From Ascidiella aspersa (taxonomy: Eukaryota): DNA of 64,000 bases. Below the pieces are notes generated by a model, which was not told the DNA's origin, made no database searches, and worked only from the letters and a program-made list of their open reading frames with translations. Of this stretch, positions 7,959-50,300 are shown one piece after another. Where the stretch lies: the NCBI GenBank assembly GCA_963924565.1, contig OZ004612.1, forward strand, positions 806,001 through 870,000, in the 5' to 3' direction. A program made the translations under genes and the position numbers. The stretch's first letter is position 1. The number at the start of each line of letters is the position of its first letter.

Positions 7959-10937
7959 TCACTCGCCAAAGGGATGGTCGATTTTGCTCCACCACTTGAT
8001 TGCTGTGTTAAAACCCTTGACTGCTTTTTTAATTAGTTTCATCTGCCAATAACATTCACTGATTCCCAAGTGACAACCTGCAATATGCATCGCTGCTTCT
8101 TCATCGGGATCCGACGTCGAATGAGGTTCAATATCTTGTTCAAAGCATTTCACCGCATTTTCAAACTTGCCAAGTTGTCGATGCGAATGACCGACATAAC
8201 AAATCGGATATGTATATTCTTCTGGTGACACTATTTTTGTGTATACTTGCTGTTTTTCGAAATAAGCAACAACCTGTTCAGGTTTGTTTAATTCAAAGCT
8301 ACAAGTAATAAGTTCCCCATAACATTTTTCAATCATGGCATCTCTCTCTACAGTTTTATGAAAACCCAAATATATTTTTTGGGAAGTTTCCAATGAGTTA
8401 TAAGCTTCCTCGTATCGATCAAGTTGGTAAAGGAAAACTCCAGCGTTATATTGTGCTTTTGCAACTAACCGCATAAAGTCATATCCCTGATGTCTATCAC
8501 ATGTGGAGTTTGCTTCTTTAAACTGATCCAACGCTAATTTGTTATTATTGTTGTTACCATTATGTATTCCAATACAACTAAATATTTCAGCTCTGGCACG
8601 AACTTTGCTTCGCTGAAATTGTTTACTTGAGGGGAAGAGTTCATAAGCTTCCTTACACAATTCACTTGCTCGTAGAAAGTTTTTCTTTTTTTACGTGAAT
8701 TTTAGCCCGAAAACGTTTGCATTTAGCAAGGAGATGACATTTGTCAGTTGGAACGTAATGCTTACTCTTTGAAATCTTTTCCGCCATTTCAATTGCTTTT
8801 TCAGCTTCTGTGTAGTTTTCCATCTCGGTGTGAGTTTGAGCAAGTTCCAAAAACGCAATTGCTGTGTCGTGATCTGAAGTTTCATTAAAAGCTCTTTCAC
8901 GACATTGAAGTAGATATTTCTCGCCGTATTTAATGCTTTCTTTGTATTTACCAATACCAAGGAAATACCTAGCAATGTATAGTTGTGCACTGTTTGAAAC
9001 ATTGTCATTTAGAACAATGTTGATTATATCGCCAGCCTTCTTAAACATACGCGTATCAACATAGAACCCGAACAACTGGCATTGGACTTCTCGTATCTCC
9101 ATATCTGTGGCGCTAAAATGCAAAGCTTGTTCGTACCATTTAATCGCATCCAACTCCATTCCAAGTTCATTGTAACCACTTCCCATCATATACAAGGTGA
9201 AAGCCCGACTTGGATCGCGGTCCTCCATAAAATCTAAAGCATGTTGAAAGCACTCTAAAGCGCATTCGAGCTGATTAACTGCATAGTGACAAATACCTTC
9301 CAAAATTCGACTATGTTTTTTTGTTCCTTTTAACTCAAATACATTTCCGCTTCTGCATTTTTCAATGACCTTTATTGCATCGTTATACAAACGTAAAGAC
9401 ATAATCGACTTTATAACACGAAACCAAGTTGATTCTTTTGGTTCGGATTGCTTGATAGCGAAAATTTGCAAAGTAGAAGCTAAAGAGAAAAATTCAACAA
9501 TTCTTGATTTTCCGAATAATTCGAGCAACAAATCATGAAATGGTTCGAATCTTGCGTCAAGATAATTGCACTGGCCGGAGTATTTGAAGTAAACCCGCAA
9601 CCTAACTTCACAGGCGAAAGCAAGTGCGAACATAAAATCCTCCGATTGTTGCTGTGATATTTGGCTTGGAGTCAATTCCCGCAGAATATCGAAAGAAGAC
9701 GACGATTTGCAATTATATCGTCTACCAAGTGCTGCTATAAACAAAGTGACGCTTCGAAATACGACGCTTTTGATGTTTACTGAGTTTCCATTATGCATCA
9801 AATTTAAGCATTTATTGATGTTAAATTTGTCAGTATCCTCCTTAAGTTGGTTTTCTGGGTTCTCATCGAAACGAGGTTGTTGTAAATGTCAATTGTTTTT
9901 ATCTTTATTTGATCGTAGATTGCATCATCGCCACAAACAAAGCATATTTTAGTTAAAATATCACCCAAGTGGTAACCGTTTTTAAGGTCAATATCCCTTT
10001 CAAGATATTCAAGCATTTCAGAAACAGGTTTGATCAGCTCAGTATCCCAGGGTTTGTTCAGGGTAGCTGACCTACCAAGTGGGAACTTGCAAGCATGTGG
10101 CATCATTCCATCAAACGAAATGCCACGAGGTGTGTGCGCATCAAAGAACCAATCTTGGTCGTTGTTCCGGTCATTAATGAAAGGCAAAGCTACGCTTGGT
10201 ATTATGGTTTCACCAAAGTTTACCACCACAACTTGAAACATCACAGACACCCAACGGAAATATTCAAGTATTTCTTCATAATCTAAACGATTTTGAACAC
10301 CTTCTTCCAACAAATAGATGTGCTCGAAATCTGAATAAGGAGTGATTTCATTTCTAACAAGTGATCCCATTCCAACCAAAGCATATTTACAAGGAGCTGG
10401 ACCTGTAGCTTCCACACAAAACTCCATTATATCTGCCATGAGCCACTTGTATTTTTCTGTAATGATTTTTTGCAAACTCTCTATCAGACTAACTCTACGT
10501 TGATCGGTTTCTGCAAGTGAAATAGCTTTTAACGCAATATCCTTTATCCAACACCGAAAGTCTTTCACTTTAGTGACAGATACTTCAACCAGTTGCTTAA
10601 AACTGTCCACACTGGTGTCATGGCTGCCAGCAAGTTGAAGAACACGCGAACAGAGCTCATCGAGATCTTTCTCCACCTCAGCAACGTCGTCAGGTTTCCT
10701 CACAACAGCTGCTTTCAACAACACGGCGCTGCGAATGAGAGATATTTTCTTGTCTCTACCCTCGGGTAATTCGTCAGCTATTTCGTGATATGCCCGGCCG
10801 AGTTGATGGATAACTTTGGCGGATTGTTTTACATCACGTTCCTTTCCGTTGGCGTAACATAATGATTTTAATTCCTTTGCAAGTTCAAAAGTTTTAACTT
10901 TGTAAATACTAGCTTTATTAACTGAGCACTCTTGCAT
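7959..10937 (-). pseudogene. NTase-TPR copy 2, frameshifted
   Basis: Three ORF pieces (9804..11009, 8662..9801, 7959..8660) are collinear with copy 3. There is a 1-nt loss near 9885, an extra T in the run at 8686-8692 and an extra G at 7971-7973. The motif reads GSLVRNEITPYSDFE. ATG at 10937. Confidence 0.8.
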
Positions 10938-12231
10938 ATTACAACTGTTGTAAATTTCTAAAAAGGCAAGTAAAGTTGCAAAATGTAGGTTAATCTTGTT
11001 ATTTACCAATTAAATGCATTCCAGATCTATTTATTATCTGAGCACCCTTGCATGTTACAACTGATTGAAATTTCTAAAAGAGCAATTGCTGTAAAGTATT
11101 GAAAAACAGATTAAAATCAATCAGGTTATTTAGCTGTTAGCTGCACTTCTGTTTTATAAACAGTCTTTAGTATATTTCAGGTTTTAGCAATTCCTTAACT
11201 AAAAGCAATCAAGTAGGCCTACTACTGACTGTAGTTTTTTCTACAATGTAACTACAGCACAATATTTTGCCGAACAATACAAGTAGGCTGGTTGTGACGC
11301 GACAATAACCAATCGTGACGCGAGAATAATATGGAAGCTGAGCCATTGTTTTTAAAAAGCTAACACCGAGCGAACATAATCCCAGTGGTTACAAACTGCT
11401 ATCAGAACAAATAGACACATTCTTTTATAATTACTTAAATACAGCGAAAAACAAAATCTGAATATACCTACACATTATATTTAGGCAAATATTCGTAAAT
11501 CTTTTATAAATATTTGTTTTTTTTAATTTCACAGTTTTATTGTAATGTGCATCTGTCTTCCTTTTACAAGTGCAAAGTAAAGTTTCAAGGTAAATTGTGT
11601 TTTTTTTTGCAAATTTTACCAAAGTTATCAAAATAGAAAAATGCCAAATAAAATAAAAAAAACACATATCAATGTAAAGTTATTGTTTTTATGCAAAACA
11701 ATTAATGTTCGCGCGAACCCTATATAAACAACAACAAGTGGTTTAAAGCGACTAACACTTAATATCATTAAACCTTATTTATTGAGAAAACTTGTGGCTC
11801 CAAAGTTTTCCAGCTCGACTCTTTCTGGTTTTTTCAATTCTATATTAATAAGCGTCAACAAAAATCGTGATAAGATAAGAAATAAAAGCGGCGAAAAGTA
11901 ACTTGAGTGAAGAAGCAATTTTGACAATAGAAATGGTAAAAAAACACATGCATCTAAAAATACAGTTGCAAAATCGTATTGACATCAAGGTATATGCAAG
12001 TGAATAACAAAACAAACATAGGAAAATGCAAGCAATGCTTACGAAAGCTTAAATATTAGCCGATGGGTAAAATACCGTGATGTGTACAATAATTAATCGA
12101 CTCCCAATCCTAGAGTGTTGAATTTTTTCCTTGGTTATTTTTGTTCATTCTGTAAAAGTTGATTCCGATTTCTCTCGCTCTACAGACTCGAGACTGAAGT
12201 AAACAAAGGAAAAGGTGTTACGTAACAATGC

Positions 12232-12405
12232 CGAGGGCTGTATTGTGACGCGTGTTGCCAAACAATGGCTTGGGTTCTACAAATGTGAGATCCTCGATAT
12301 TTTACAAACTCTGGTTCGCTTGAAATCGCTTGATATTTAACTTGTATGCGGGAATAGGCGACCACTGCTCTACCAACTGAACTATCAACAAAGTGAACAA
12401 ACTAA
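12232..12405 (-). repeat. About 170-bp conserved module with a tRNA A-box/D-arm. Other copies at about 7697-7865, 16545-16715, 34095-34185, 38675-38850 and 42345-42381+46635-46775
   Basis: Shared core gatatttaacttgtatgcgggaataggcgaccactgctctaccaactga(a/g)cta. The minus strand reads TAG(T/C)TCAGTTGGTAGAGC. Confidence 0.8.
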
Positions 12406-13580
12406 TATTTATTTATTATTTATTGAAGTTAATTTTTCCTCAAAAAAAAAACGCCTTCTTCATTCTACCTAATCCTACAATTTTATTAAAATGTATAGTT
12501 TTTGGGTTCCATAAAAATAATTTGAATATATTTATTTAATTAATCTCAATATGTATTTTTATAATATTTATCGAAATGTCTCTATGTTCGCTTCTGCTGC
12601 GCTTATGCTGGCTTTTTAATGGAACAGAACAGTAGGATCTATGACGTCATACTTGCGTCGGGTACCAGTTAAGTATTCAGTTAACAGATTTCAGACACAT
12701 TTGTTGTGTAATTATTTTGGCCGAAAATTTATTTCGGGACATATCTTGTTTTTGGCATTAATTTTGTCAGACCGATTTTTGTCCGAAGCTTTATAGAAAA
12801 AGTCTGCATCGTAGAATTCTTAAATTTTTAGACAAGAAGCAGAATGGTATGTAGGTGTGCTTAAGAGGTTTATGACATAGGGGCCTTCGATTGGGGGAAA
12901 AAAACTAAACTATTGTGACGTCATCGTTTAGGCTTTCTCTAGCTATCGACTCCCGTCTAGTGGTGGAAAAAACTTTTTCAAAATTTAATAATATGGACGT
13001 ACGCGTTCGACGTAAAGTTTATCTATCTTATATAGTTTTTTGAACATTCCCCAAATAGCTCGTCGAATTTAAATTTATTGTTGCGGTAACACATGAAGAG
13101 GCAAGGCCATGTACTAAAATTTCACCCATCGTAGAACTCAAGGAAGCATTGCGATAAGCTTCATTTATATGACGTTTGTGAATTGTGTCACCAGAATGGA
13201 CTATAAGGAAAAAAACTCAAAAAGTTTTCACGAAGATTAATTTTTTAGGCGGCAAGTGCCTATTGGTCACTATCTCTGGAAATATGATTTTTAGGTGGCA
13301 AAAATGAAATTAAATACAAAGTAAGTATTTTGATAAAGTGAATATTTGTGACGCAAACTAATTCTAAAATTAATTTTGCATAGTCTTTACCAAACTAACG
13401 TATAAGAAAATGAAACCCTGGCAACTAATCCTTTCGTATTTAAGACATAAGTTACGGCTGGAAACTTTCGGCCCATATCTGTTTTTGCTTGCAGAAACAA
13501 TTGAGAAAACTATAGAAAAACAACGCCAACCCCCTGAAATAAATAAATAAATAAATCAAAAATAAAAATAAACACTAAAC

Positions 13581-17544: not shown

Positions 17545-20500
17545 TTATGAAAAAATCTCGGCAAGTTTTATAATGCCGTAGCACAGGTTAATTTTTTCAT
17601 TCGCCAAAGGATGGTCGATTTTTCTGAACATCTTGATTGCTGTTTTCGAACTCTGCATTGCTTTGTCATATAGCTTCATCTGCAAATAACATTCACCACT
17701 TTGCTTGTGACAATCTGCAAGAAACATCGCTACCCTTTTATCGGAATTCGACGGCGAATGAAGTTCAATTTCTTGTTTAAAGTATTTCACCGCATTTTCA
17801 AACTTGCCAAGTTTTTGATACGAACGACCGACCAAACAAAACAAATATTTTTGTTCTTCTAATGGAACTAGTTTTATATACTCCTGTCCTTTGTCGAAAT
17901 AATCAACAACCTGTTCAGGTTTGTTTAATTCAAAAGTACAATTAATGAGTTCCCTATAACATTTTCCAATCATGACATCCCCCTCTACAGTTTTATGAAA
18001 TCGTAAGAACATTCCTAAAGAAGTTTCCAGTGTGTTATAAGCTTCCTCGTATCGATCAAGTTTGTAGAGACAAAATCCAGCATTTAATTGCGCGTTTGCA
18101 ACAAACAGCATAAAGCCATGTTCCTGATGTCCATCACATATAGAGATTGCTTCTTTAAACTGATCTAACGCTAATTTGTAATTATTGTTGTTACCATTAT
18201 GTTTTCCAATATACATATACATTTCAGCTCTGACACGAACTTTGCTTCGATGAAAATGTTTACTTGAGGGGAAGAGCTCATAAGCTTCCTTATACAATTC
18301 ACTTGCTCGTAGAAAGTTTCTCTTTTTTACGTGAAGTTTAGCCAAGAGCCATTTGCATTGAGCAGGAAGATGATATTTGTTGTTTGGAACGTAATGCTTA
18401 CTCTTAGAAATACTTTCCGCCATTTCAATTGCTTTTTCAGCTTCTGTGTAGTTTTCCATCTCGATGTACGTTTCACCAAGTTCTAGCAAGGCAAATGCTG
18501 TGTCGTGATCTGAAGTTTCATCGAAGGCCTTTTCACGACATTGATGTAGATATTTCTCGCCGTATTCAATGCTTTCTTTGTATTTGCCAATTCCACGGTA
18601 ATATTGAGAAACATATAGTTGTGCACTTTTCGAAACATTGTCGTTTAACACAAGCCTAACCATTCTACCAGCCTTTTCAAGCAGACCTTCATAAACATAC
18701 AACCCCAACAATCCACATTGGACTTTTTGTGTGAACATATCTGTGCTGCTTGAATGCAAAGCTTTTTCGTAGCATTTAATCGCATCCAAGTTCATTCCAA
18801 GTTCATTGCAACAACCTCCCATTATATTCAACATTATAGCTCGCGTTGGATAGTGGTCTTCCATAAACTTTAACGCATGTTGAAAGCATTTTAAAGCTAT
18901 TTCATGCTGATTAAGTCTATAGTGACACAAGCCTTCTGCAAAGCAACTTAGTGCTTTTGTTTCTTCAAACAAAACTATATTTTTGCATCTTACTTTTTTC
19001 ATGACCTTTATTGCTTCGTTATATAAACGTAAAGACATAAGCGAAAATATAACAAGAGGCCAGGTTAATTCCATCAATTCAGATTGCTTGTTGGTGAACA
19101 TTTGCAAAGTGGAAGCTAAAGAAAAAAATTCAACAATTCTTGATTTTCCAAATACTTCAAGCAACAAATCATGGAAAGGTTCGAATCTTGCGTCAAGATA
19201 ATCGCACTGGCCGGAGTATTTGAAGTAAACCCGCAACCTAACTTCACAGGCGAAAGCAAGTGCGAACATAAAATCATCTGATTGTTGCTGTGATATTTGG
19301 CTTGGAGTCAATTCCCGCAGAATATCGAAAGAAGACGACGATTTGCAATTATATCGTCTACCAAGTGCTGCTATAAACAAAGTGACGCTTCGAAATACGA
19401 CGCTTTTGATGTTTACTGAATTTTCATTATGCATCAAAGCCAAGCATTTACCGATGTTGAATTTTTCAGTATCTTCTTTAAGTTGGTTTTCTAAATTCTT
19501 ATCGAAACGTGGTTGTTGTAAAATGTCAATTGTTTTCGTTTTCATTTGATCGTAGATTGCATCATCGCCACAAACAAAGCATATTTTAGTTAAAATATCG
19601 CCCAAGTGGTAACCGTTTATAAGGTCAATATCCCGTCCAAGATATTCAAGCATTTCAGAAACAGGTTTGATCAGCTCAGTATCCCAGGGTTTGTTCGGTG
19701 TAGCTGACCTACCAAGTGGGAACTTGCAAGCATGTGGCATCATTCCATCAAACGAAATGCCACGAGGTGTGTGCGCATCAAAGAACCAATCTTGGTCGTT
19801 TTCCTGATCATTAATGAAAGGCAAAGCTACGCTTGGTATTATGGTTTCACCAAAGTTTACAACCACAACTTGAAATAACACAGACACCCAACGGAAATAT
19901 TCCAGTATATCATCATAATCTGAACGATTTTGAACACCTTCTTCCAATAAATAGATGTGCTCGAAATCTGAATAAGGAGTGATTTCATTTCTAGCAAGTG
20001 ATCCCATTCCAACCAAAGCATATTTACAAGGAGCTGGACCTGTAGATTCCACACAAAACTCCATTATATCTGCCATGAGCCATTTGTATTTTTCTGTGGT
20101 GAGTTTTTGCAAACTCTCTATCAGACTAGCTCTACGTTGATCAGTTTCTGCAAGTGAAATTGCTTTTAACGCAATATCGTTTATCCAACACCGAAAGTCT
20201 TTCACTTTAGTGACAGATGCTTCAACTAGTTGCTTCAAACTGTCCACACTGGTGTCATGGCTGCCAGCAAGTTGAAGAACACGCGAACAAAGCTCATCGA
20301 GATCTTTCTCCACCTCAGCAACGTTGTCAGGTTTCCTCACAAGAGCTGCATTTAACAACACGGCGCTGCGAATGAGAGATATTTTCTTGTCTCTACCCTC
20401 GGGTAATTCGTCAGCTATTTCGTGATATGCCCGGCCGAGTTGGTGGATAACTTCGGCGGATTGTTTTACATCACTTTCCTTTCCGTTTGCGTAACAGTAT

Positions 20501-20574
20501 GACTTTAATTCCTTTGCAAGTTCAAAAGATTTAGCTTTGTAAATACTAGCTTTATTAACTGAGCATCCTTGCAT
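17545..20574 (-). CDS. Intact NTase(GlnD/GlnE/DUF294-like)-TPR protein, copy 3, 1009 aa from ATG
   Basis: Uninterrupted ORF. The track's TTG start at 20646 lies at a putative 5'-UTR intron, so the first ATG at 20574 is used. GS..R.E....SD.E motif at about 19960-20010. The NIK...R / SSFDIL..L / EVRLRVY helical domain resembles GlnD/GlnE NTase C-domains. The C-terminal half has repeated TPR-like units (A...G......A...F..AL). Confidence 0.92.
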   Translation of the reverse strand: MQGCSVNKASIYKAKSFELAKELKSYCYANGKESDVKQSAEVIHQLGRAYHEIADELPEGRDKKISLIRSAVLLNAALVRKPDNVAEVEKDLDELCSRVLQLAGSHDTSVDSLKQLVEASVTKVKDFRCWINDIALKAISLAETDQRRASLIESLQKLTTEKYKWLMADIMEFCVESTGPAPCKYALVGMGSLARNEITPYSDFEHIYLLEEGVQNRSDYDDILEYFRWVSVLFQVVVVNFGETIIPSVALPFINDQENDQDWFFDAHTPRGISFDGMMPHACKFPLGRSATPNKPWDTELIKPVSEMLEYLGRDIDLINGYHLGDILTKICFVCGDDAIYDQMKTKTIDILQQPRFDKNLENQLKEDTEKFNIGKCLALMHNENSVNIKSVVFRSVTLFIAALGRRYNCKSSSSFDILRELTPSQISQQQSDDFMFALAFACEVRLRVYFKYSGQCDYLDARFEPFHDLLLEVFGKSRIVEFFSLASTLQMFTNKQSELMELTWPLVIFSLMSLRLYNEAIKVMKKVRCKNIVLFEETKALSCFAEGLCHYRLNQHEIALKCFQHALKFMEDHYPTRAIMLNIMGGCCNELGMNLDAIKCYEKALHSSSTDMFTQKVQCGLLGLYVYEGLLEKAGRMVRLVLNDNVSKSAQLYVSQYYRGIGKYKESIEYGEKYLHQCREKAFDETSDHDTAFALLELGETYIEMENYTEAEKAIEMAESISKSKHYVPNNKYHLPAQCKWLLAKLHVKKRNFLRASELYKEAYELFPSSKHFHRSKVRVRAEMYMYIGKHNGNNNNYKLALDQFKEAISICDGHQEHGFMLFVANAQLNAGFCLYKLDRYEEAYNTLETSLGMFLRFHKTVEGDVMIGKCYRELINCTFELNKPEQVVDYFDKGQEYIKLVPLEEQKYLFCLVGRSYQKLGKFENAVKYFKQEIELHSPSNSDKRVAMFLADCHKQSGECYLQMKLYDKAMQSSKTAIKMFRKIDHPLANEKINLCYGIIKLAEIFS

Positions 20575-22794
20575 ATTACAACTGTTGTAAATTTCTAAAA
20601 AGGCAAGTAAAGTTGTAAAATGTAGGTTAATCTTGTTATTTACCAATTAAATGCATTCCAGATCTACAAAAACGACTTCTAATCTACAAGCAACCAAGCA
20701 CTAATGACTGTAATTCAGTCTACATTCGAACAACTTAATATTAAGCCTAAGCCAATTCAAGTGGGCTGGTTGTGACGCGACAATAACCGGATGTGACGCG
20801 ACAATAACCGGGCGTGACGCAGTGAATAAATATCAGCCTAGCCATTGTTTGTCGAAGCGAGCAACGAGAAAACATAATCCCAGTGATGTTAGATTTTTGG
20901 TTGGATTCAATTTCCCAAAAATCCAAACACATCTCCAAGATTAAAACATTTCTTAAAATGTTTGCATTGATCAAAGTTCTTTATTTCTATGATTTAGTAT
21001 TTGCATGCACCACTTCGGTCGCTGGTCGTTTACATTTAGCAGAGAAAGACAGAGCAACGTCACTCACAATTCGCGCACACTGCTTCTTTCTTAAGTAGGA
21101 AGTGGCTCGATAAGCTACAATTGAAAAAAAGCATGTCGGGGTTTGGAGATTCTAACCAAAACTTGAAACAAATCTATTTGTCGGCGTCTGATGTGAGGTT
21201 TCGGTAATAACACGATATTATCAGACATTGTTGGTTCTAACTAATAAAACCGAATACATGTTCAGCCTTTTAAGTTTTATCTCACCCTTGAAAAAAGCAA
21301 ACGAGTGTTTTTCTTATCTGTCTAAAGCGGACCAAGCTTGTTTTGATTATTAATTACCCTGATGATGCGGTCAGCTGGTATCTGCGACCAAAACGTCGGT
21401 TTATAACTTCGTTTACACAAGAAGAGCATTTTCTATATTTATATGCATTAGGTTAATTTGACAAAATCTTTCGTCTTTTTAAGAAATATGTTTTTTTTAA
21501 AGTGCAGAAATATACGCTTAGTATTTATGTAGGGGCACCCAAGCTGGGTTAATAAAACGTCGATAACAAAAATCGTGTTAAAGAAGACACATTAGCGTTA
21601 CCCGTATTGCCTGTTTGTCTACTGTTACGACTTTACTAGTAATTCTAGAAAACTACCTAGGCCTCCTGTAAAGTCGCTGTGAGTTCTTATTTTCGGGCAT
21701 TAAATAACCTACCAAAGAGAACTTATATTAAAGACCACAACAAGAAAACCCAATGTACAGATGTATTGGTTGCAAGAGTAGAATATTGCCACACCACAAC
21801 AATAATGACACTTAGACACACACAATTACTTCCAAAAAAAACCGACAGACAGAGCATAATGAAACTTAAAGTTTTACTCGCTAATTTCACAAGGCTACAC
21901 CCAGACGTCTCTCCCCGCTGTAGGCGGTGAGCCTCTCGTAATATACGCTAAAACAAAACTCCTTCTCACGGGAACCGACGCGCTCCCGGAAACCCCAGGC
22001 CCGCCTTACAGGGCGGCCGTTTCGTGGAAAGATAACATTGGGCGGACCTTTTAGTGAGAAGTTAAACCGCGCCGGAAAACAAGCGATAAATGATCGTGAG
22101 ATTTGCAGAAATGTTTGGAGATAGGAAAAAACATGTCTAGAGTCCAATTAACGGCGAACACCACAGCGCACAAGAATATTACGTTAATATACAATTATAG
22201 ATGTCTCGAAATGCGAAAACCTAATTCCTAGCCCTACATTTAAGAACAAAGGCGCAAAATTAATAATGAATGTTAGAATTTACAGTCGGCGTAATTAGCA
22301 ACCGGTGATAATTTTGTAGTGCTAATTAAGCACGTAACAGCTACTAAAGTTTATAATTTGATATAATAGTTGTATTTAATTTTTGTATTATCTTAGATTT
22401 CTGTAAAAATAACTGGCTTAGATTTTTAATCCCTTAGTGTCAGTCATCTTTTTGATAACTTTTTCTTTAATGAATTATTTCTCTAATCCCGTATTTATTT
22501 TATTTTTTTTAATCTCCAATTTAAAATTATAAATCTCCCCTTACGCACCAAACGGTTTCGTTGTTTAGCGAAGTTTTTTGTCCTGAATTTGTTATTTGCT
22601 CTTACGTGAAATAAGTTTTTGTTCCAAAGTAAACTCCTTTTTCAACTAAAGTCACCTGACATTTTATTAGATTAACGAAGAAAATAAAGGCATTTATTTT
22701 ACTAAGTTTATCAACGAATATACAAAATGGTTGATTTTGATTTTTTTAACTTCCAAATAAAGATTTCGAAACTGGGTTTACACACGACACAAAA

Positions 22795-31910: not shown

Positions 31911-34516
31911 TATTTGTATTTGTTTGGGTTTATGAGGGTTAATAGGACGGGTAAGCGTTCGATTTAGAGGACTTACTATGGGAATTAGTGATGAAGTTGA
32001 GGGTAGGTTTTTAGGTTAGTTAAATGGTATTTTAGGCCTTATTTTAAAATATATTAAGCCTTATTCTAAAAGGTTTAGGCCTTTTTTCGATAATATATTA
32101 TTGCGACACTTATTTGTTAGTCTAATTTTGGTTCAAACTTTAGTATTATTTTGACGTTGATGTTTCTCCAATTTCTGCTTTATTAGTGGAATCAATTGAA
32201 ACTTAAACCACCTAAACACAATACTTTGAGTCAGTTTAAATAAAGTTATTAGAAGCCTTTTTATTTTGCTCGACATAAACTTTGTATAATTTCACTAATT
32301 TTGATAATTTGACCTTTGTAGTTGTAACAAATTTAATTAAAACGTCTGGTTTAATTTAGACTGTTTCTGAAGTGGTGATTCTATCGTTTTATTTAATCAA
32401 AACAAATTTGATTTAACTGTTTTAATTGTGTTTTCAATTGATTTTTTGTAATATATGTGGCTAAATGCAAAGTGTTTACTCATTTCCTGGAGGTAAATGT
32501 TTTTTATCGCACGTGTTCTAGTTTCATACCATGGTAATAGGTCCATGATACTGGGGTGTAAACAAAGACGACATTTATCCATAAATAATTGAATCTAACG
32601 CAAATAAATTATATTAACTTCACGATTGTATTATTTTCACCAATAAACACAAACAGCGACGTTTACAAAAGTGATCACCCAACCAGCAATTTGCATCCAC
32701 ACATAAAAGCACCCAGACATAATATAAACAAGCACATAAATACACCTTCATACTCGATACACGCACTCGTATAATGCCGGCAAAGTAGGTTATAGTCACC
32801 GCTGTAAATATGCTGACTCGCGATGAAGTTTGAATACACCGTTGGTGCACAACAAGCTAAGGTTTGAGCCAGGGTTGTCAGATGCTGGGTTAAGATTAGG
32901 ACATTGTTGGTGTAAAATTCGGACATTTTAGGTAAAATAATATTTAGCAAGGACCTATAGTGCAAGACTAAAGGGAATCAATGGAGTTAGCTGTTCTTGG
33001 TAAGCAGTCAAAATTCCTTACAAAGTTACAAAACATTTAGTCTTTAACGGTAGTCCAATAATAAACCTTTCTGTAAATTCTATTTCCTTTTGCCAAAACT
33101 GCAACACCAATTTTCTTACTGGAATTATGTGGATGATTTAGAAAAGGCCATGTAAAAGTTATGATACCGCTGACAAGTAGAAATACTTTGCTTATAATCT
33201 ATTGTAAACCTAGCATAAAATTTATTGTAAGTTGGCCTAAATTTCAATTTGGAACTAAAGCGCCCTATACTACACCTGACGCTTTTATGGTGCACAGAAT
33301 TATTCTATAAATACGCATCAAAATCGTGCAAAGCGCGAACATTTTTTGATTTATGTTGGTAAAGTTGGTATAAACAATTTTGGAAGCCTCGTGAGCCCGT
33401 GGTTTTACTTCATCCCACAATGTTTCAAATAAATTCGGCCAAATCAGGACAGAAAGCTTACTGTTCCAATAGTTTTCAAACCGCCGGACACAGCAGTTAA
33501 AATTAGAACAATATATCCTTTTTGGTCCGAATTTAGGTAAATTCTGGTTTGAGCGTCCATTCCCCCCCACACGCGACCCCCTAGACAACCCCTTGCGATC
33601 CCCTTGGGGGTCGCGACCCCCAGTTTGAGAACCATCGGTATAGAAAAAAATATTAACAAAAAATTAATCCATTAAACAAACCAAATCTATCAATATTTTA
33701 CCGAAGCTAAGATAACTCTCGAAATGAAACCAAAATCAACTTGATTAAAGGAATGGCAATTTAGAAAAGTGACATTTTAGGAAAATATATTACGATTTTG
33801 TCATAATTATAGTTATTTTATCTTGCAAAATCAACAGAAATCCGTTTATGAAAGTTTTAATGGTCGTAAGATTATGACTTTGCCAGTTTTTGCGGACACT
33901 TTAAACGTATAAATAAACTAGTCTACTAGCGGTTACTAATCTTTTGTTTACAATACACTACAGATTTGGTTGGAATGAGTTTTTTAAGATTGTTTAGTAA
34001 TGATTTTAGCCTGGATTTTTTTGTGATGACCTTTCAACTGGTATTTTATAATTTTTTCTCTAGGTTATTTACTTGGCAGGTCACTTGAGAAAACGCTTAA
34101 AATCGTTTGATATTTAACTTGTATGCTAGAATAGGCGACCGCTGCTCTACCAACTGAACTATTAACAAAGTGAACAAACTAATGTTTTATTAAAAATGAA
34201 AGAAAGTTTAATTTTTTCGATTTTAGTTAAACAATATGTCTGGAACATCACAGATCTTCTTAACTTTATTAATAACATCCTAAAATCATATTGACGCTGT
34301 AAATCATTGTTAAAAGGCACCGGGGGTCGAAACAAACGATCGAAAAATAGTTTTTGATTTATACGCGACAAATTTAAAAGGGCAATAAACAGGAATACTT
34401 AAGTCCATTGGCGGACACCAGTTCATTCAAAGGAGCTCAATAATTAAACAGAAGTTTATTTTTTTGTGATTAAAAGCTCGACAAGTTTTATATTGCCATA
34501 GCATCGGTTAATTGTC

Positions 34517-37501
34517 TCACTCGCCAAAGGGATGGTCGAATTCTCTCCAAAACTTGATTGCTGTGTTAAAACTCTCGACTGCTCTTTTAATTAGTTTCAT
34601 CTGCCAATAACATTCACTGATTCCCAAGTGACAACCTGCAATATGCATCGCTGCTTCTTGATCAGGAACCGACGTCAAATGAAGTTCGATTTCTTGTTCA
34701 AAACATTTCACCGCATTTTCAAACTTGCCAAGTTGTTGATACGAACAACCGGCATAACAAATCGGATATGTATATTCTTCTGGTGACAATATTGTGTATA
34801 CTTGCTGTTTTTCGAAATTATTAACAACCTGCTCAGGTTTGTTTAATTCAAAGCTACAACTAATGAGTTTCTTATAACAACTTCTAATCATGTAATCTAT
34901 CTTTACCGTTTTATGAAATCCCAAAAACATTCCCAAAGCAGTCTCCAGTGTGTTAAAAGCTTCCTCGTACCGTTTTCGTTGGTAGAGACAAACTCCAGAG
35001 CTTAATTGCACATTTGAAACTAACCACATAAAGTTATGTCCCTGATGTCCATCACATGTGGAGATTGCTTTTTCAAACTGATTTAACGCTAATTTGTAAT
35101 TATTATTGTTGTAGTTATGTATTCCAATACAGAAATACATTTCAGCCCTGACAAGAACTTTACGTCGCTGAAATTGTTTACTTGAAGGAAAGAGCTCATA
35201 AGCTTTCTTATACAATTTACTTGCTCGTAGAAAGTTTTTCTTTTTTACTTGAACTTTAGCCCGGAACGCTTTGACTTCAGCAGGAAGATTATCTTTGTCG
35301 TCTGGAACGTAATGTTTGTTTTTAGAAATATTTTCAGCCATTTCAATTGCCTTTTCAGCTTCTGTGTAGTTTTCCATTGTGATGTAAGTTTGAGCAAGTT
35401 CTAGCAATGCACCTGCTGTGTCGTTATCTGAAGTTTGATCGAAGGCGTTTTCACGACATTGAAGTAGATATTTCTTTCCGTATTCAATGCTTTCTTGGTA
35501 TTCACCAATTCCATGGTAATACCGAGCAATACAGAGTTGTGCATCTTCCGAAACATTGTCTTTTAAAAGAAAGTTGAGCATGTTACCGGCCTTTTTAAAC
35601 AAATGCTCTTTCACATATAATGTCAACAATTCACATTGGACCAATTGTGTAACCATAATTGTGCTGCTTGAATGCAAGGCTTGTTCGTGGCATTTAATCG
35701 CGTCAAAGTTCATTTCAAGTTCATAGTAACATCTTCCCATCACATGCAAGGTTGAAGCCCGATTTGGATCGTGGTCCTCCATAAAATTTAAAGCATGTTG
35801 AAAGAACTTTAAAGCGGTTTTACGCTGATGAACTCTATGGTGACAATAGCCTTCCCAAATGCAACTCATTTTTTTTGTTCCTCTTATCTCAAAAATATTT
35901 TTGCTTTTGCATTTTTCAATGACCTTTATTGCTTCGTTATACAAACGTAAAGATATAATCGACTTTACAACACGAAACCAAGTTGATTCTTTTGATTCAG
36001 ATTGCTTGATGGTGAACATTTGCAAAAAGGAAGCAAGTAAGAAAAATTCAACAATTCTGGATTTTCCAAATTTTTCAAGCAACAAATCATGAAAAGGTTC
36101 GAATCTTGCGTCAAGATAATCGCACTGGCCGGAGTATTTGAAGTAAACCCGCAACCTAACTTCACAGGCGAAAGCAAGTGCGAACATAAAATCATCTGAT
36201 TGTTGCTGTGATATTTGGCTTGGAGTCAATTCCCGCAGAATATCGAAAGAAGACGACGATTTACAATTATATCGTCTACCAAGTGCTGCTATAAACAAAG
36301 TAACGCTTCGAAATACGACGCTTTTGATGTTTACTGAGTTTACATCATGAATTAAACCCAAGCATTTATCGATGTTGAATTTATCAGTATCTTCTCTAAG
36401 TTGGTTTTCTAGATTCTTATCGAAACAAGTTTGTTGTAAGATGTCAATTGTTTCCATTTTCATTTGATCGTAGATTGCATCATCGCCACAAACAAAGCAT
36501 ATTTTAGTTAAAATATCGCCCAAGTGGTAACCGTTTTTAAGGTCAACATCCCTTCCAAGATATTCAAGCATTTCAGAAACAGGTTTGATCAGCTCAGTAT
36601 CCCAGGGTTTGTTCGGTGTAGCCGACCTACCAAGTGGGAACTTGCAAGCAAAAGTAACCATTCCATCAAACGAAATGCCACGAGGTGTGTGTGCGCATCA
36701 AAGAACCAGCCCTTGCCATTATTTTCCTCGGGATCATTAATGAAAGGCAACGAAACGTGAGGTATTAGGGTTTCACCAAAGTTTATAACCACAACTTGAA
36801 ACATCACAGACACCCAACGGAAATATTCAAGTATTTCTTTATAATCTGAACGATTTTGAACACCTTCTTCCAACAAATAGATGTGCTCGAAATCTGAATA
36901 AGGAGTGATTTCATTTCTAGCAAGTGATCCCATTCCAACCAAAGCATATTTGCAAGGAGCTGGACCTCTAGCTTCCACACAAAACTCCATTATATCTGCC
37001 ATACGCCACTTGTATTTTTCCGTGATGATATTTTGCAAACTCTCTATCAGACTAGCTCTACGTTGATCGGTTTGTGCAAGTGAAATTGCTTTTAACGCAA
37101 TATCCTTTATCCAACACCGAAAAGTCTTTCACTTTAGTGACAGATGCTTCAACCAGTTGCTTCAAACTGTCCACACTGGTGTCATGGCTGCCAGCAAGTA
37201 GAAGAACACGAGAACAAAGCTCATCGAGATCTTTCTCAACCTCAGCAACGTTGTCAGGTTTCCTCACAACAGCTGCATTTAACAACACGGCGCTGCGAAT
37301 GAGAGATATTTTCTTGTCTCTACCCTCGGGTAATTCATCAGCTATTTCGTGATATGCCAGGCCGAGTTGATGGATAACTTTGGCGGATTGTTTTACTTTA
37401 CGTTCCTTTCCGTTTGCGTAACATAATAACTTTAATTCCTTTGCAAGTTCGAAAGTTTTATCTTTGTAAATACCAGCTTTATTATCTGAGCACTCTTGCA
37501 T
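34517..37501 (-). pseudogene. NTase-TPR copy 4, frameshifted
   Basis: ORF pieces 37058..37501, 36589..37038 and 34517..36661. Extra A at 37120-37123, extra GT in the (GT)n at about 36685-36692, and the same C-terminal extra G as copy 2 at 34529-34531. Confidence 0.8.
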
Positions 37502-44396: not shown

Positions 44397-46318
44397 CTAT
44401 AAAAAACGACTTGACTGTCTTTGGGGCAGATTTTTGCTAATATGTTGCATCAAAATATCACGATGATGCACACCATCACCTGTAGCTACATCACAGGGCC
44501 TACTGACAGGCTGGTCAGCAAAAGGTAGATTATGATGGCCGAATGTAACTGCTTCGATTACTGCAGAGTTTGACAATTCACACAAATTATGTAAAATACA
44601 GCAAGCTCCAATTATTGTTGGTGCAAAATCTATGCGTGCTTCAATCTTTCTTAGTATGCGCCACCGGGCCTTGAGCTTTCCAAATGCATTTTCCACTACA
44701 ATGCGTGCACTACTGTGATAACAATTAAAAGATTCTTTTTCTGGTGAAATTCTTGACCCAATGTAGGGCTTAATCAGCCATGGTAATATTAGATAGGCGG
44801 GATCACCAAGAATAAGCAGTGGTATGTTCACACCTTCAATATTTAAGGGTGCCTAGAACAAAAAAGTTGTGAAATACATAATTAATATAGTAAACAATTA
44901 TAGTTACACTTACTTTTGGTAAAGTATTGGAGTGCTTGAACAATGCTGAGTTCTTAAAAACTGATGCGTCATGGCAACTTCCAGGCATTTTGATGCTTAC
45001 ATTTCTAAAACTAAAAGTTTATTTAATTATGTAAGTGTTTAAAAAAAATTTCACAACAAAAATCATCACTGCATAATAAACTAACCATAATTTGTCATCG
45101 ACAACAGCTTGCAGCACATAAGAATCCAAACCTTTGCGGTTCGTATGATCTTTCTTTCCTTCTATAGGAGCAGTAACGGCAATGTGCGAACCATCAATGC
45201 AGCCCATAACCTGGCTTCGCTGACGGCCGGAATTGTTTAATGTAGAATGACCTGCTTTAACGCAGGAAACATCACGCCACTTTTGGGGAATTCTGACGTA
45301 ACACGAATGGCTAGTCGTAAACAAAACAAGTTTAGCGCATAAGGAAAGAACACTACATACACTCGTTTGAATCAGATACTAATTTGTGACTGAGGCGCTG
45401 TTCTAGAATCGACAAAATATAACATTATTCGGGTTAGGATGCGGGTTTGGGTAGGTTTAAATAGTAATAGTTGGCCCACCCTCACCCAAATATTGTACAT
45501 TGCTTTGATAACTGTAACGCTGTGGTAGGATTCTAGGCCAGCGCCAAATACAGTGTTTATTAATGTTTGGCTTATCACCTTCTCTTGTCCGCTGTGCCTT
45601 GTATATAGCGTTGGCCAGCACAAACAAGCTTAACTTTCCTGCACTTACATTCTGTGTGCCAGGTAAACTGAAGCAATATACAGTCAAAAACGTACTTAAT
45701 CGGCAAACCTAACTCAAGTAATTCTTATGTTTTTTTTCAATTTTAGGTTTATAAAAACGAACAAGCAGCAATAAATTGCTACCGCAAGGAGTAGCCTAAG
45801 CCGAAAAATCGGTTGTGCGTCAGAGGTTTACTGGAATATTACGTAATAATGCATATCAGTGCAGCTTGTACATTCAAGCTGGCTTGAATTTCACACCATG
45901 TAATTACGACGCTGGAACGGATTACTTTTCAAGCCGGCTTGAACCTTAATCTAATCTGCCTGAGAAAGGTGCATGTAAACAGGCTTATTGACAAGGTCAT
46001 CAAACTTTGTTTTTTTCATTCTAAAGTGTTTAAGCCACTGAGCATCATTAAATCCAACAACAGTTTTTTCCCAAAACTCTTTTGACCTATGTACATTAGT
46101 GTATTTTCCTCAACTTATAATTTTTATTTTAAATGCCACAAAACATACCTATTCATCATCCATACACTTTTTGTTCGTCTTCTATTATGGTGTAATCTTG
46201 TTGCTACCAACACTTGAAACAAACTTTTTCGAGCGATCAAACGCTTGCGGTGCAATAACACAATAACCATAACTTGCAAAATATACTTGTAATAAATAAC
46301 TACCACTCTCGGATCCAT
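44397..46318 (-). pseudogene. Harbinger (HARBI1-like, DDE_Tnp_4) transposase, spliced, central part replaced
   Basis: GCIDGSHI, NRKG..S..LQAVVD, PGSCHDASVF, LGDPAY, VVENAFGKLKARWRIL, plus N-terminal W.KHFRMKK..FD.L near 45990-46050. The segment 45211-45986 is unrelated sequence. Confidence 0.85.
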
Positions 46319-47283: not shown

Positions 47284-50200
47284 TTATTTTTTCGATTTCA
47301 AACCACGTCTTGCAAGTTTTTTTGTTTTGTAGCAATGATTAATTCTCTCACTCGCCAAAGGATGGTCGATTTTTTTCCACAACTTGATTGCTGTTTTCGA
47401 ACTCTGCATTGCTTTGTCATGTTGCTCCATCTGCAAATAACATTCACCGATTAGCTTGTGACAATCTGCGATAACCATCGCTGCATCTTTATCGGGATCC
47501 GACGTCAAATGAAGTTTGATATCTTGTTCAAAGCATTTTACCGCATTTTCAAACTTGCCAAGTTGTTGATATGAACGACCGACATAATATAATAAATATT
47601 TTCGTTGTTGTAATGAAAGCTGTTTCATATATTCTTGCCCTTTTTTGAAGTAATTAACAGTCTGTTCATGTTTTTCAATTTAAAGCCACAAATAATGAGT
47701 AACACAGAACAGTTTCCAATCATGTGATCCATCTCTACAGTTTTATGAAAACCCAAATACATTTTCAGAGAAGTTTCCAGTGTGTTATAAGCTTCCTCGT
47801 ATCGATCAAGTAGGATAAGACAAATTCCAGCGTTTAATTTCGCGTTTGCAACTAACTGCACAAAGTTATGTCCTTGATGTTCATCACACGTGGAGATTGC
47901 TTTTTGAAACTGATATAACGCAAATTTGTAATCATTGTTGCTACAATAATGTATTCCCTTACACCTATACTTGTCAGCTCTGACAAGAACCTTGCTTCGC
48001 TGAAAATATTTACTTGAGGGGTAGAGCTCATAAGCTTCCTTAAACAAATCACTTGCTCGTAAAAAGTTATTTGTTTTTACGTGAATTTGAGCCCGGAGCC
48101 GTTTGCATTCAGCAGGGAGATGATATTTCTTGTTTGGAACATAATGTTTACTTTTCGAAATATGTTCCGCCACATCGATTGCGTTTTCAGCTTCTGTGTA
48201 GTTTTCCATAGCGATGTAAGGTAGAGCACGTTCTACCAACGCAACTGCTGTGTCGTGATCTGAAGTTTCATCGAAGGCGTTTTTACGACATTGATGTAGA
48301 TGTTTCTCGCCGTATTTAATGCTTTCTTGGTATTTTCCAAATGCACGGTAATACCGAGCAATACAGAGTTGTGCATATTTGTAAACATTGTCGTCTAGAA
48401 CAAGGTTAAGTATCTTGCTGGCCTTCTCAAACATATTCTCTCTAACATACAACCCGAACAACTCGCATTGGTATGGTCGTGAATTTTTGTTTGTGCTGTT
48501 TGACTGAAAAGCTTTTTCGAAACATTTAATCGCAAGCAAGATAAATCCAAGTTCGTTGCAACAAATTCCAATCTCATACAAAATTACACTACGCCTTTGA
48601 AAATCTAACGCAAAGAACTTTAAAGCAAGTTCATGTTGATCAAGTCTAGAGTGACACAAACCCTCCAAATAGGAAATGTCTGCTTTTGAAGCTTTTAACT
48701 CAAATGTATTTCTGCTTTTGCATGTTTTAATGACCTCGATTGCTTCGTTATACAAACGTAAACACATAAGAGAAAGTATAACACGAAGCCAAGGTGATTG
48801 TTTTGATTCAGATTGCTTGTTGGTGAACATTTGCAAAATGGAAGCTAAAGAGAAAAATTCAACAATTCTTGATTTACCAAATACTTCCAGCAACAAATTA
48901 TGAAATGGTTCAAATCTTGCGTCAAGATAATCGCACTGGCCGGAGTATTTGAAATAAACCCGCAACCTAACTTCACAGGCGAAAGCAAGTGCGAACATAA
49001 AATCATCCGATTGTTGCTGTGGTATTTGGCTTGGAGTCAATTCCCGCAGAATATCGAAAGAAGACGACGATTTGCAATTATATCGTCTACCAAGTGCTGC
49101 TATAAACAAAGTGACGCTTCGAAATACGACGCTTTTGATGTTTACTGAGTCTTTCTCATGCATCAAAGCCAAGCATTTATCGATGTTGAATTTGTCAGTA
49201 TCTTCCTTAAGTTGTTTTTTCAAATTCTCATCGAAAAGAGGTTGTTGTAAGATGTCAATTGTTTTCATCTTCATTTGATCGTAGATTGCATCATCGCCAC
49301 AAACAAAGCATGTTTTAGTTAAAATATCGCCCAAGTGGTAACCGTTTTTAAGGTCAATATCCCTTTCAAGATATTCAAGCATTTCAGAAACAGGTTTGAT
49401 CAGCTCAGTATCCCAGGGTTTGTTCGGTGTAGCTGACCTACCAAGTGGAAACTTGCAAGCAAAAGTAACCATTCTATCAAACGAAATGCCACGAGGTGTG
49501 TGCGCATCAAAGAACCAGCCCTTACCATTATTTTTGTCTGGATCATTAATGAAAGGCAACGAAACGTGAGGTATTAAGGTTTCACCAAAGTTTACAACCA
49601 CAACTTGAAACATCACAGACACCCAACGGAAATATTCAAGTATATCATCATAATCTGAACGATTTTGAACACCTTCTTCCAACAAATAGATGTGCTCAAA
49701 ATCTGAATAAGGAGTGATTTCATTTCTAGCAAGTGATCCCATTCCAACCAAAGCATATTTACAAGGAGCTGAACCTGTAGCTTCCACACAAAACTCCATT
49801 ATATCTGCCATGAGCCACTTGTATTTTTCCGTGATGATTTTTTGCAAACTCTCTATCAGACTAGCTCTACGTTGATCGGTTTGTGCAAGTGAAATTGCTT
49901 TTAACGCAATATCGTTTATCCAACACCGAAAGTCTTTCACTTTAGTGACAGATGCTTCAACCAGTTGCTTCAAACTGTCCACACTGGTGTCATGGCTGCC
50001 AGCAAGTTGAAGAACATGCCAACAAAGCTCATCGAGATCTTTCTCAACCTCAGCAACGTTGTCAGGTTTCCTCACAATAGCTGCATTTAACAACACGGCG
50101 CTGCGAATGAGAGATATTTTCTTGTCGCGTCCTGTTGATAATCGGGCAATTATTTGATATGCAAGGCCTAGTCTGTGCATGACTTTAGCAGATGTCTTGG

Positions 50201-50300
50201 GGTCTCTTTCTTTTCCGTTTGCAAAGCATTGTGACTTTAACTCTTTTGCTAACGGTTCAGTAAAGCTTATCAAATATTCAACAGACACAGTGTTTCCCAT
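47284..50300 (-). pseudogene. NTase-TPR copy 5 with a divergent N-terminus (MGNTVS); single late frameshift, so possibly a functional 891-aa truncated form
   Basis: An 891-aa ORF at 47625..50300 plus a C-terminal piece at 47284..47628. There is a 1-nt loss in the T-run near 47671-47675 relative to copy 3. Acceptor ctttttcacag lies 20 nt upstream of the ATG. Confidence 0.8.

Follow-up and report, generated by a model that had tools for sequence, protein, structure and literature searches.

The five DUF294 NTase-TPR genes of the window (64,000 nucleotides of Ascidiella aspersa contig OZ004612.1) belonged to a tandem cluster of 49 copies and approximately 2 Mb (close copies on C6 at 0.72–2.66 Mb). 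Within the NTase half of these genes, a cassette of approximately 100 bp occurred in two states, independently of the TPR array, the flanks and the N-terminus. We consider it probable, at roughly 0.6, that the cluster is a mosaic likely generated by gene conversion and unequal crossing-over, and that the two-state cassette is likely held by selection as it moves between TPR arrays with a likely role in immune sensing. Gene conversion is commonplace in tandem families; the notable feature here is the shuffled unit, an old two-state patch beside the conserved acids of the enzyme that stays in phase across a homogenised spacer.

The genome contained 103 matches to the family. An alignment of close copies comprised 58 of 64 loci, six being excluded as too distant or partial, and these copies were spread over five contigs. 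Their architecture was a DUF294 NTase followed by TPRs in a single coding exon; the Pfam DUF294 scores of copies 3 and 5 were 30.6 and 33.4 bits, compared with the curated cut-off of 21. In the cluster, 28 of 49 copies were intact. Mosaicism was tested by AU tests, LD and parsimony counts. LD was calculated for 43 dereplicated copies (15 of 58 excluded: 5 aberrant, 10 near-duplicates), the trees contained 50 rows (8 of 58 copies left out) and dN/dS was determined with 24 of the 31 intact genes. Coordinates of the features in the window are given in Table 1.

Table 1. Positions of the five gene copies and their features in the window.
Feature	Position	Strand	Remarks
Copy 1, 5' part of DUF294 NTase-TPR gene	1..1190	-	extends beyond window; frame stops after 691 aa
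Copy 1 B cassette	333-464	-	ETLIPHVSLPF/GKGWFF/MVTFACK; outside 7959..50300
Copy 2	7914..10937	-	frameshifts near 9886, 8692, 7973; A cassette; 2/4-type tail
Copy 2 A-type cassette (PSVA ... MPH)	10086..10211	-	ETIIPSVALPF/DWFF/GMMPHACK
Copy 2 tail motifs SPEEYTYPICY/HLGISECYWQMKLIK	8028..8228	-	common to copies 2 and 4 only (2/58)
Copy-3/5-type leader and 5' coding start in copy 2	10828..11029	-	inside copy-4-type upstream flank; second mosaic junction
Copy 2 upstream flank	11030..13354	.	homologous to 37478-40000 upstream of copy 4, 85-87%; 1.8 kb shared at 84%
Copy 2 downstream flank	7253..7630	.	378 bp, 90% to 33734-34094 downstream of copy 4
Copy 3	17545..20574	-	sole intact gene of the five, 1009 aa
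Copy 3 layout			N-terminal helices; predicted DrrA/GlnE-fold NTase ~aa 70-480; 11 TPR-like repeats aa 541-986
Copy 3 metal-binding motif G189-x-G191-S192...D203-x-E205	19960..20010	-	invariant in 94 outside homologs
Copy 3 A-type cassette, aa 243-284	19723..19848	-	ETIIPSVALPF/DWFF/GMMPHACK
Copy 3 TPR array	17617..18954	-	
Copy 3 leader and 5' start	20465..20896	-	88% to 50578-51019 upstream of copy 5
Copy 4	34471..37501	-	frameshifts near 37123, 36693, 34531
Copy 4 B cassette	36641-36774	-	ETLIPHVSLPF/GKGWFF/MVTFACK
Copy 4 2/4-type tail	34586-34786	-	SPEEYTYPICY/HLGISECYWQMKLIK
Copy 5	47287..50300	-	frameshift near 47673; alternative N-terminus
Copy 5 B cassette	49452-49583	-	ETLIPHVSLPF/GKGWFF/MVTFACK; carries G277R
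Copy 5 alternative N-terminal module, start MGNTVS	50127..50320	-	in 15/58 copies
Copy 5 AG acceptor	50322-50321	-	RNA depth falls to zero there
Ordinary 5' coding start, left over, 36 codons	50578..50687	-	upstream of copy 5's alternative N-terminus

The sequence-only reading had described NTase variants and tail types that assort differently in the five copies, and all NTase and tail peptides it quoted were present on the minus strand. The conflict it saw between NTase segment and tail was confirmed: AU cross-rejections gave p<1e-5, and the partition trees were not congruent. Of all 15 five-taxon trees, three survived for the cassette, namely those joining (c2,c3), and three for the tail, those joining (c2,c4); the other trees had p<1e-4 in both cases. 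The variant was not the whole NTase domain, as had been assumed, but the cassette of approximately 100 bp; outside this cassette, the NTase half was compatible with 14 of the 15 trees. Between nt 600 and 900 of the CDS, 19 of 21 informative sites showed the 2+3 split, all within nt 741–842. In the NTase core (nt 450–720), copies 2 and 3 were 94.8% identical, less than the pairs 1-2, 1-5 and 2-5 at 96.7%. The tail pair of copies 2 and 4 stood (92%, mutual best among 58), whereas copies 3 and 5, with the motifs VGRSYQ/DKAMQSSKTAIK, shared 80% and ranked 20th and 38th for each other; their tail was the family majority type, with a KAMQSSKTA-type motif in 38 of 58 copies. Similarly, the flanks paired copies 2 and 4 both upstream and downstream, but did not pair copies 3 and 5 beyond a proximal leader of 330–440 bp. 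This leader was 88% identical, the best match in the family, and copy 2 carried part of it at 95–99%.

A duplication of a two-gene unit (2+3 giving 4+5), followed by homogenisation of the NTase domains within each unit, had been proposed as the cause of this pattern. It is largely refuted, and we regard it as very improbable. Copies 2 and 4 were indeed sisters in the TPR tree (100/100) with flanks in common, the proximal leader of copy 3 matched copy 5 best, and copy 5 matched copy 3 best in nt 850–1500 and 2000–2400. However, (c3,c5) was unsupported in every partition, and these copies were sisters neither in the TPR tree nor in the distal flanks. The best downstream partner of copy 4 was copy 3 (1.2 kb, 80%), copy 5 was absent from the ten best downstream-flank partners of copy 3, and an unrelated EGF-exon gene region separated copies 3 and 4. 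The postulated conversion within units was not supported either: outside the 100-bp cassette, copies 2 and 3 and copies 4 and 5 were no closer than other pairs, and the likeness within units was limited to a family-wide 100-bp dimorphism. Since the A and B states occur throughout the family and are far older than these copies, the five-copy pattern needs no unit history; sampling from a 2:1 pool suffices. An ancient unit duplication, obscured by subsequent exchange, is conceivable.

That the mosaic is an assembly artefact, with paralogs or haplotypes collapsed into a chimeric consensus, is extremely improbable. Copies 1, 2, 4 and 5 contained frameshifts, several within short runs or dinucleotide repeats, and L019/L037 (99.9%) and other near-identical pairs may be haplotypes that were not collapsed, as expected for such an artefact. 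In contrast, the assembly had 75 chromosome-scale contigs, the pattern was repeated in 58 copies on five of them, and both cassette states were also found in contigs of another run and in raw short reads, which cannot phase the cassette with the TPRs. Most copies diverged by approximately 13% overall and by >20% in the TPRs, and are therefore too distant to have been merged.

Across 50–58 copies, enzyme variant and TPR type were independent of one another, as claimed. The r2 between the cassette and outside sites was 0.01–0.03 (43 dereplicated copies). On the TPR tree of 50 rows, the cassette state changed 13 times, compared with 13.8 after shuffling (187 of 500 shuffles as low), and the starred branches of this tree forced at least 7 changes. 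Among 82 pairs with at least 1.5 kb of upstream flank in common, 31 were unlike in cassette state (44% expected at random). Cassette state was independent of the N-terminal type (p=0.75), and its order along the cluster was random (19 runs vs 20.9). On a tree of the NTase half without the cassette, the cassette states were mildly clustered (11 changes, 21–27 of 500 shuffles as low). Mosaicism through sequence exchange was supported, and the NTase half was homogenised relative to the TPRs, as previously suggested (dS of 0.10–0.23 vs 0.22–0.40).

State A (S248/H281) was present in 39 of the 58 close copies and state B in 18 (H248/F281 in 17, R248/F281 in one), while one copy was a duplicated hybrid. 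The variable residues formed three patches (248/250, a loop at 255–262, and 279–281) with the conserved acids E243, D266 and D276 among them, in agreement with the earlier remark that the variant residues adjoin conserved acidic motifs. Within the cassette, r2 was 0.91 at distances of 80–110 nt (36 pairs); elsewhere in nt 190–1500 it was 0.03 with a maximum of 0.18, and none of 126 pairs exceeded 0.5. The 48 bases between cassette patches were homogenised. The 16 codons from the loop to motif 3 were identical in copy 3 (A) and in L019 and L042 (B), yet the distant B gene L060 differed from them at 5 of 14 silent codons, which shows that exchange took place inside the cassette. L013 had a hybrid loop; in L009, a repeated B segment came after an A segment. 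The B pair recurred in long open frames at 57–68% identity (L060, L066 and L068) and in the outside protein P0177 (46–48% identity, from a profile search), one of 280 motif matches in 274 outside proteins. A homolog search focused on B returned 34 proteins, and none of 136 motif matches (147 proteins) had the B pair. The cassette shows the same signature as the "peak of divergence" known from opsins (PMC3924837).

The phase of the cassette might also be kept by mismatches that stop conversion tracts, with no selection involved, if B were a weakened or dead enzyme serving as a decoy or regulator, or merely tolerated. Tracts starting in the 48 identical bases and ending at the patches would keep the stretch between them uniform without selection, and the divergent N-terminal block (nt 63–183), with r2 of up to 1.0 over 100 nt, indicates that divergence alone can keep a block together. 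Moreover, B has lost the near-invariant His281, which was kept in 89 of 94 outside homologs. B copies were more often broken (4 of 18 intact, compared with 26 of 39 A copies, p=0.004; after dereplication 4 of 13 and 19 of 30, p=0.09), copy 5 carried G277R, and GS was changed to GP in the intact B copy L042. Nevertheless, this explanation is unlikely. B retained D203, E205, E243, D266 and D276, and the persistence of H248 and F281 at 57–68% identity and in P0177 is not that of a neutral dead allele. Despite at least 7 swaps, simple motif-1/motif-3 hybrids were absent among 57 genes, although L013 and L009 do have breakpoints within the cassette. B may still have a selected role as a decoy. If the cassette is held by selection, as we prefer, A/B hybrids would work poorly and be purged.

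The NTase half was predicted to adopt the fold of the DrrA/GlnE AMPylases with intact metal ligands. In the model of copy 3 (pLDDT 91), a polymerase-beta core was followed by a helical C-terminal lobe, as in the DrrA/GS-ATase fold. Residues 70–480 matched DrrA with Z 23.9 (rmsd 3.6, 298 aligned) and GlnE with Z 18.9 and 18.6, the first unrelated row having 8.4; Foldseek matches agreed with this fold. The G191-S192...D203-F-E205 motif aligned to that of GlnE and was invariant in 94/94 outside homologs. The metal-binding motif of DrrA is described in PMC7815794. Candidates for the third carboxylate, corresponding to DrrA D150 and GlnE D753, were E243 (93/94 outside homologs), D266 (94/94) and D276 (94/94). 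A 30-residue insertion around the active site, absent from GlnE, carried the cassette, which is predicted to line the active site. In a B-type fragment cut at the end of the cassette, the cassette was disordered in the model (pLDDT approximately 50). Profile alignments to E. coli GlnE placed the first motif only and were weak beyond it (probability 2% and 12%). The NTase region had no match in PDB sequence searches, and the best 60 of 277 matches in an alignment-profile search of the PDB were TPR-like chains only. Helices and the NTase fold accounted for residues 1–480, and Pfam gave no STAND NTPase (NB-ARC/NACHT) hit in copies 3 and 5.

With the same genetics, the chemistry might be different: the enzyme could produce a small nucleotide signal (a cyclic or linear oligonucleotide, like those of cGAS-like receptors and OAS) or modify a small molecule, and A and B could make different messengers. 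The NTase belongs to the same polymerase-beta superfamily, and its insertion is not found in GlnE. Fusion of a sensor to an NTase, with expansion in a single lineage, is also the pattern of cGAS-like receptors. We nonetheless consider such chemistry quite improbable, given that the four top structural matches were protein adenylyltransferase domains and no cGAS, OAS or CD-NTase chain was among the structural matches listed. Furthermore, the insertion is shared by a bacterial relative, a TPR protein from Neochlamydia, of a kind described as host-directed F-box-DUF294-TPR (PMC4209131).

Variation in the TPR array peaked at the positions of the ligand groove. Repeat positions 2, 5, 6, 9, 12 and 13 are peptide-binding positions (PMC1261162), and in 24 intact paralogs they were the six most variable, with an entropy of 1.6–1.9 bits compared with ≤1.2 at all of the other 24 positions. 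Their dN/dS was 1.09 with their own silent sites and 1.40 (1.14–1.71) relative to the dS of all TPRs, values obtained by pooling non-independent pairs with repeat registers set by eye, the pattern having first been noticed in one repeat. The TPR-wide dN/dS was 0.53–0.69, and that of the NTase half 0.33.

From these data we infer a mechanism for the preferred reading. Gene conversion and unequal crossing-over would act across the whole cluster. Each TPR array would bind its own ligand, a pathogen protein or altered self, in its concave groove and then either deliver it to the enzyme or relieve an inhibition of the enzyme. The enzyme would modify a protein with an NMP, most likely AMP, and A and B may differ in the choice of nucleotide or acceptor. 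An alternative N-terminus beginning with MGN[IT]VS was present in 15 of 58 copies and, judging from its letters, may be a second, myristoylation-like switch unlinked to the cassette; we take its MGxxxS start to resemble the N-myristoylation consensus. The MG-type N-terminus would send some members to membranes.

Legionella DrrA/SidM (PDB 6YX5) and E. coli GlnE (1V4A, 3K7D) resemble the tunicate family in the predicted fold over approximately 300 residues and in the GS-x-D-x-D/E motif. The identity is 12–14%, though, and the tunicate genes have Glu as the second acid and the insertion with the cassette; they are host-encoded, multicopy and fused to hypervariable TPRs. GlnD/GlnE/DUF294_C are listed as bacterial in PMC3710099, and DrrA-like proteins are called limited to Legionella in PMC4454073. 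Neochlamydia NEX2 proteins (F-box/OTU-DUF294-TPR) likewise have a DUF294 NTase followed by TPRs and form an expanded family of 50, but they are bacterial and thought to act in host cells (PMC4209131), whereas the tunicate genes form an animal cluster. Unlike NEX2, copies 3 and 5 had no F-box or OTU among their Pfam hits. A Neochlamydia plasmid protein was 32% identical over 242 aa and kept E243, D266, D276 and the insertion. DUF294-TPR proteins of Ciona intestinalis and Clavelina lepadiformis had 42–51% identity in the NTase half, mostly with the A-type motif, and most shared the architecture. They are annotated only as uncharacterized.

With diversified immune receptor clusters, the tunicate family shares clustering, birth and death, and variation focused on the ligand surface. 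Fungal NLRs are reportedly TPR-sensor immune receptor candidates that are clustered and evolve by birth and death. Ectocarpus NB-ARC-TPR genes are likewise clustered, undergo birth and death and join a variable TPR ligand surface to an enzymatic or signalling module (PMC3341825). In contrast to NB-ARC/NACHT-TPR receptors, the tunicate family is without the NB-ARC/NACHT switch, and its effector is a dimorphic NTase. As its genes have a single coding exon, the family does without exon shuffling. RHD/RHCE is reportedly another case of an opsin-type divergence peak under gene conversion. Opsins have a short divergence island at functional residues in paralogs otherwise homogenised by conversion; that island is fixed between two loci (PMC3924837), whereas the tunicate cassette is mobile, with two states at approximately 50 loci and three patches with a homogenised spacer.

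The two enzyme forms, in backgrounds otherwise 95% identical, constitute a natural structure-function experiment, and one set of likely immune sensors is predicted to be paired with two different enzyme outputs. No description of this animal family was found in the literature searched. Tentatively, the cluster may be an undescribed intracellular immune repertoire of tunicates built on a bacterial-effector-like AMPylase, in which conversion would assemble a membrane-targeting N-terminus (on or off), a cassette (A or B) and a TPR specificity out of dozens; a 100-bp swap would then re-wire the recognition of a given ligand to another nucleotide modification. For Metazoa, PMC8668991 refers to only two conserved protein AMP-transferases; a DrrA/GlnE-fold family of 50–100 members with diversified ligand grooves in an invertebrate chordate would therefore widen both the AMPylation field and the known invertebrate receptor repertoires. 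Such a repertoire, if it exists, would add one more class of protein nucleotidyltransferase in animals to the two conserved ones.

RNA reads were few, 68 and 30 in 6% of a single run; they included a few with B letters and with the MG exon, and part of the reads derived from more distant paralogs. Among the non-family ORFs of at least 58 aa, 50 of 149 were scanned against Pfam and yielded EGF, LCCL, a transposase and one weak AFF4 match.

Five genes lay on the minus strand of the window, each of approximately 3 kb with a coding region without interruption. Copy 3 was intact, the sequences of copies 1, 2, 4 and 5 contained frameshifts as assembled, and a frameshift close to the gene end was common to copies 2 and 4. 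The family matched DUF294 and many TPRs in Pfam. Its nearest named relatives were Ciona and Clavelina proteins, and the nearest protein clusters were chordate for the most part, with one chlamydial cluster lower in the ranking. The NTase region gave 103 matches (not copy numbers) in the 309-Mb, 75-contig assembly. Eighty loci (L numbers) were taken from the genome and 58 close copies were aligned, 49 of which sat at 0.72–2.66 Mb of C6, the contig holding the window (C6:806001-870000). Behind copy 3 its last 39 codons were doubled, as also in L016 and L025. Paralog pairs with 99% identity 0.2–0.6 Mb apart (L019/L037, L011/L038, L012/L021, L008/L028) either arose by very recent duplication or conversion or are haplotypes that the assembly left uncollapsed.

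Features located in the window or, where named, in fetched loci
Feature	Location	Strand	Remark
Copy 3	17545-20574	-	intact, 1009 aa
Doubled codons behind copy 3	17411-17527
Unrelated spliced gene	24021-28420	+	between copies 3 and 4
LCCL match	24021-24230	+	weak
EGF-Ca matches	26589-26696, 27127-27252, 28289-28396	+	exon-sized
Minisatellite	25063-25490		11 bp, 39 copies, 99% matches
DDE_Tnp_4 transposase match	44400-44852	-	between copies 4 and 5
Transposase region	44400-45700	-	further pieces upstream of the match probable
Dispersed intergenic repeats, 150-550 bp	4639-5491, 7675-7882, 12118-12418, 15140-15419, 16433-16750, 31671-31913, 38568-38885, 41322-41985
L009 gene	2727-5927	-	open, 1067 aa
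L069 gene	800-3823	-	open, 1008 aa

The sequence-only reading had grouped the NTases of copies 2 and 3 against 1, 4 and 5, and the tails and flanks of 2 and 4 against 3 and 5. Every motif it quoted was located in place, and the conflict between partitions was significant: the variant segment permitted only trees joining copies 2 and 3, and the tail only trees joining 2 and 4. The NTase variants were real, but comprised 19 sites in nucleotides 741–842 of the coding sequence (the cassette), and the rest of the NTase half resolved nothing. The tails of copies 2 and 4 did belong together: they were 92% identical, no more than 2 of 58 copies had their motifs, and the TPR tree joined the two copies at 100/100. 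The tail of copies 3 and 5 was the majority type (38/58) and did not pair them. Kilobase stretches of flank were shared by copies 2 and 4 as claimed, but copies 3 and 5 shared only a proximal leader, carried in part by copy 2 as well, and the best downstream partner of copy 4 was copy 3. Since these tail and flank results contradict it, duplication of a two-gene unit, the cause formerly proposed, fails to explain the pattern and is an improbable history. The earlier observation was partly confirmed and its interpretation partly supported.

Raw DNA reads under the same species label contained both cassette states. The third patch was A-type in 64 of the 122 reads placed on copy 5, a biased figure, and one contig from a different run spanned the B loop; the reads were short, with the cassette–TPR phase beyond their reach. 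RNA reads were few (68 and 30 in the 6% of a single run that was covered) and had the strand expected for the genes; part of them derived from distant paralogs, and 2 of 3 carried B letters at the third patch. That the mosaic is an assembly artefact is highly implausible.

Across the 58 copies, residues 248/281 (copy 3 numbering) were S/H in 39 (state A), H/F in 17 and R/F in 1 (state B), and L009 carried both forms. In L009, an A-type segment like that of the distant paralog L003 was followed by a repeated B-type segment; this local duplication records an exchange at the cassette that took place out of register. Cassette state showed no linkage with other parts of the gene (r2 0.01–0.03, 43 dereplicated copies), required 13 changes on the TPR tree versus 13.8 with shuffled labels (at least 7 forced), differed in 31 of 82 pairs with long common upstream flanks, and followed a random order along the cluster. 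When mapped on a tree built from the NTase sequence outside the cassette, it clustered mildly (11 changes; 21–27 of 500 shuffles as low), as expected if part of the exchange tracts were longer. Within the cassette r2 was still 0.91 at 80–110 nt; elsewhere in the NTase half it fell to 0.06 by 10–30 nt and 0.03 at 60–110 nt. The 48 bases between loop and third patch were identical, silent sites included, in copy 3 (A) and L019/L042 (B) but not in the distant B gene L060, which departed from them in 5 of 14 silent codons; exchange has therefore taken place within the cassette, with its ends kept in phase.

The pattern matches the divergence peak described in PMC3924837 as a signature of selection under conversion. 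Two results count against selection: a divergent N-terminal block was likewise fully linked over 100 nt, and B copies were broken more often (p=0.004; p=0.09 once dereplicated). The alternative that B is a weak or dead enzyme form, its cassette linked mechanically, is unlikely; B is old, since three contigs had it in long open frames of 57–68% identity and an outside protein of 46–48% identity carried it as well. Among 94 outside homologs, S248 was found in 83 and H281 in 89, which makes A the ancestral form. Distant paralogs (L073–L077, L079, L080) carried RF or R[CL] at 247–248 and, at 281, one of Q, A, N, E and G, further active-site classes indicating that the site diversified more than once in this genome.

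The structure model of residues 1–480 was confident (pLDDT 91) and matched the AMPylase domain of Legionella DrrA (Z 23.9) and both domains of E. coli GlnE (Z 18.9, 18.6), with unrelated entries far below. A GS...DxE motif, invariant in the 94 outside homologs, corresponds to G98-S99...D110-x-D112 of DrrA as given in PMC7815794. The cassette is set among three more conserved acids (E243, D266, D276), and the third metal ligand is expected to be one of the three; we infer that the variant residues of the cassette line the active site. L069, with E205G and D276Y, likely encodes a pseudo-enzyme. A Neochlamydia plasmid protein had this whole region of the enzyme in common with the family (32%), which ties the latter to the F-box/OTU-DUF294-TPR expansion NEX2 described in PMC4209131.

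In 24 intact genes, silent divergence over most of the NTase core was 0.10–0.13; the cassette and the helical lobe had 0.21–0.23, and the TPRs 0.22–0.40. The corresponding dN/dS was 0.18–0.47 in the NTase half versus 0.53–0.69 in the TPRs. Sixty sites exceeded 2 bits of entropy in the TPR half and only 3 in the NTase half. Positions 2, 5, 6, 9, 12 and 13 were the six most variable of 30 (11 repeats, register by eye); their gap over other non-core positions, a pattern noticed in one repeat ahead of its test, was reached in 0 of 20,000 permutations. Their dN/dS, from non-independent pooled pairs, was 1.09 on their own silent sites and 1.40 on the all-TPR dS. The same six are the peptide-contact positions in PMC1261162.

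We favour, with a probability of approximately 0.6, a birth-and-death cluster of sensor-enzymes in which conversion homogenises the enzyme and selection acts in two ways, driving variation in the TPR groove and maintaining a pair of co-adapted active-site forms that move as a short cassette. Judged from the evolutionary pattern, an immune role is likely. Nucleotide-signal chemistry is compatible with the same genetics and is rather doubtful, slightly more so than a defective B. A full-text search of a mainly open-access literature found no description of animal DUF294-TPR genes, those of tunicates included; the processes are already known, and neither the family nor its mobile cassette seems to have been described.

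Between the genes, the EGF exon was not found in the other fetched loci, and the transposase match is presumably Harbinger-like. The minisatellite generated spurious ORFs, and dispersed repeats common to intergenic stretches inflated apparent flank homology. As a second switch, an N-terminus starting MGN[IT]VS, which we take to resemble a myristoylation consensus, occurred in 15 of 58 copies, copy 5 included, behind a left-over ordinary start; it was independent of cassette state (p=0.75; p=0.42 dereplicated), and a few RNA reads covered it, ending at an AG acceptor. The C-termini of distant paralogs L070 and L072 had hydrophobic stretches resembling tail anchors, and basic tails closed many of the cluster proteins; such ends may add to the variation in membrane targeting.
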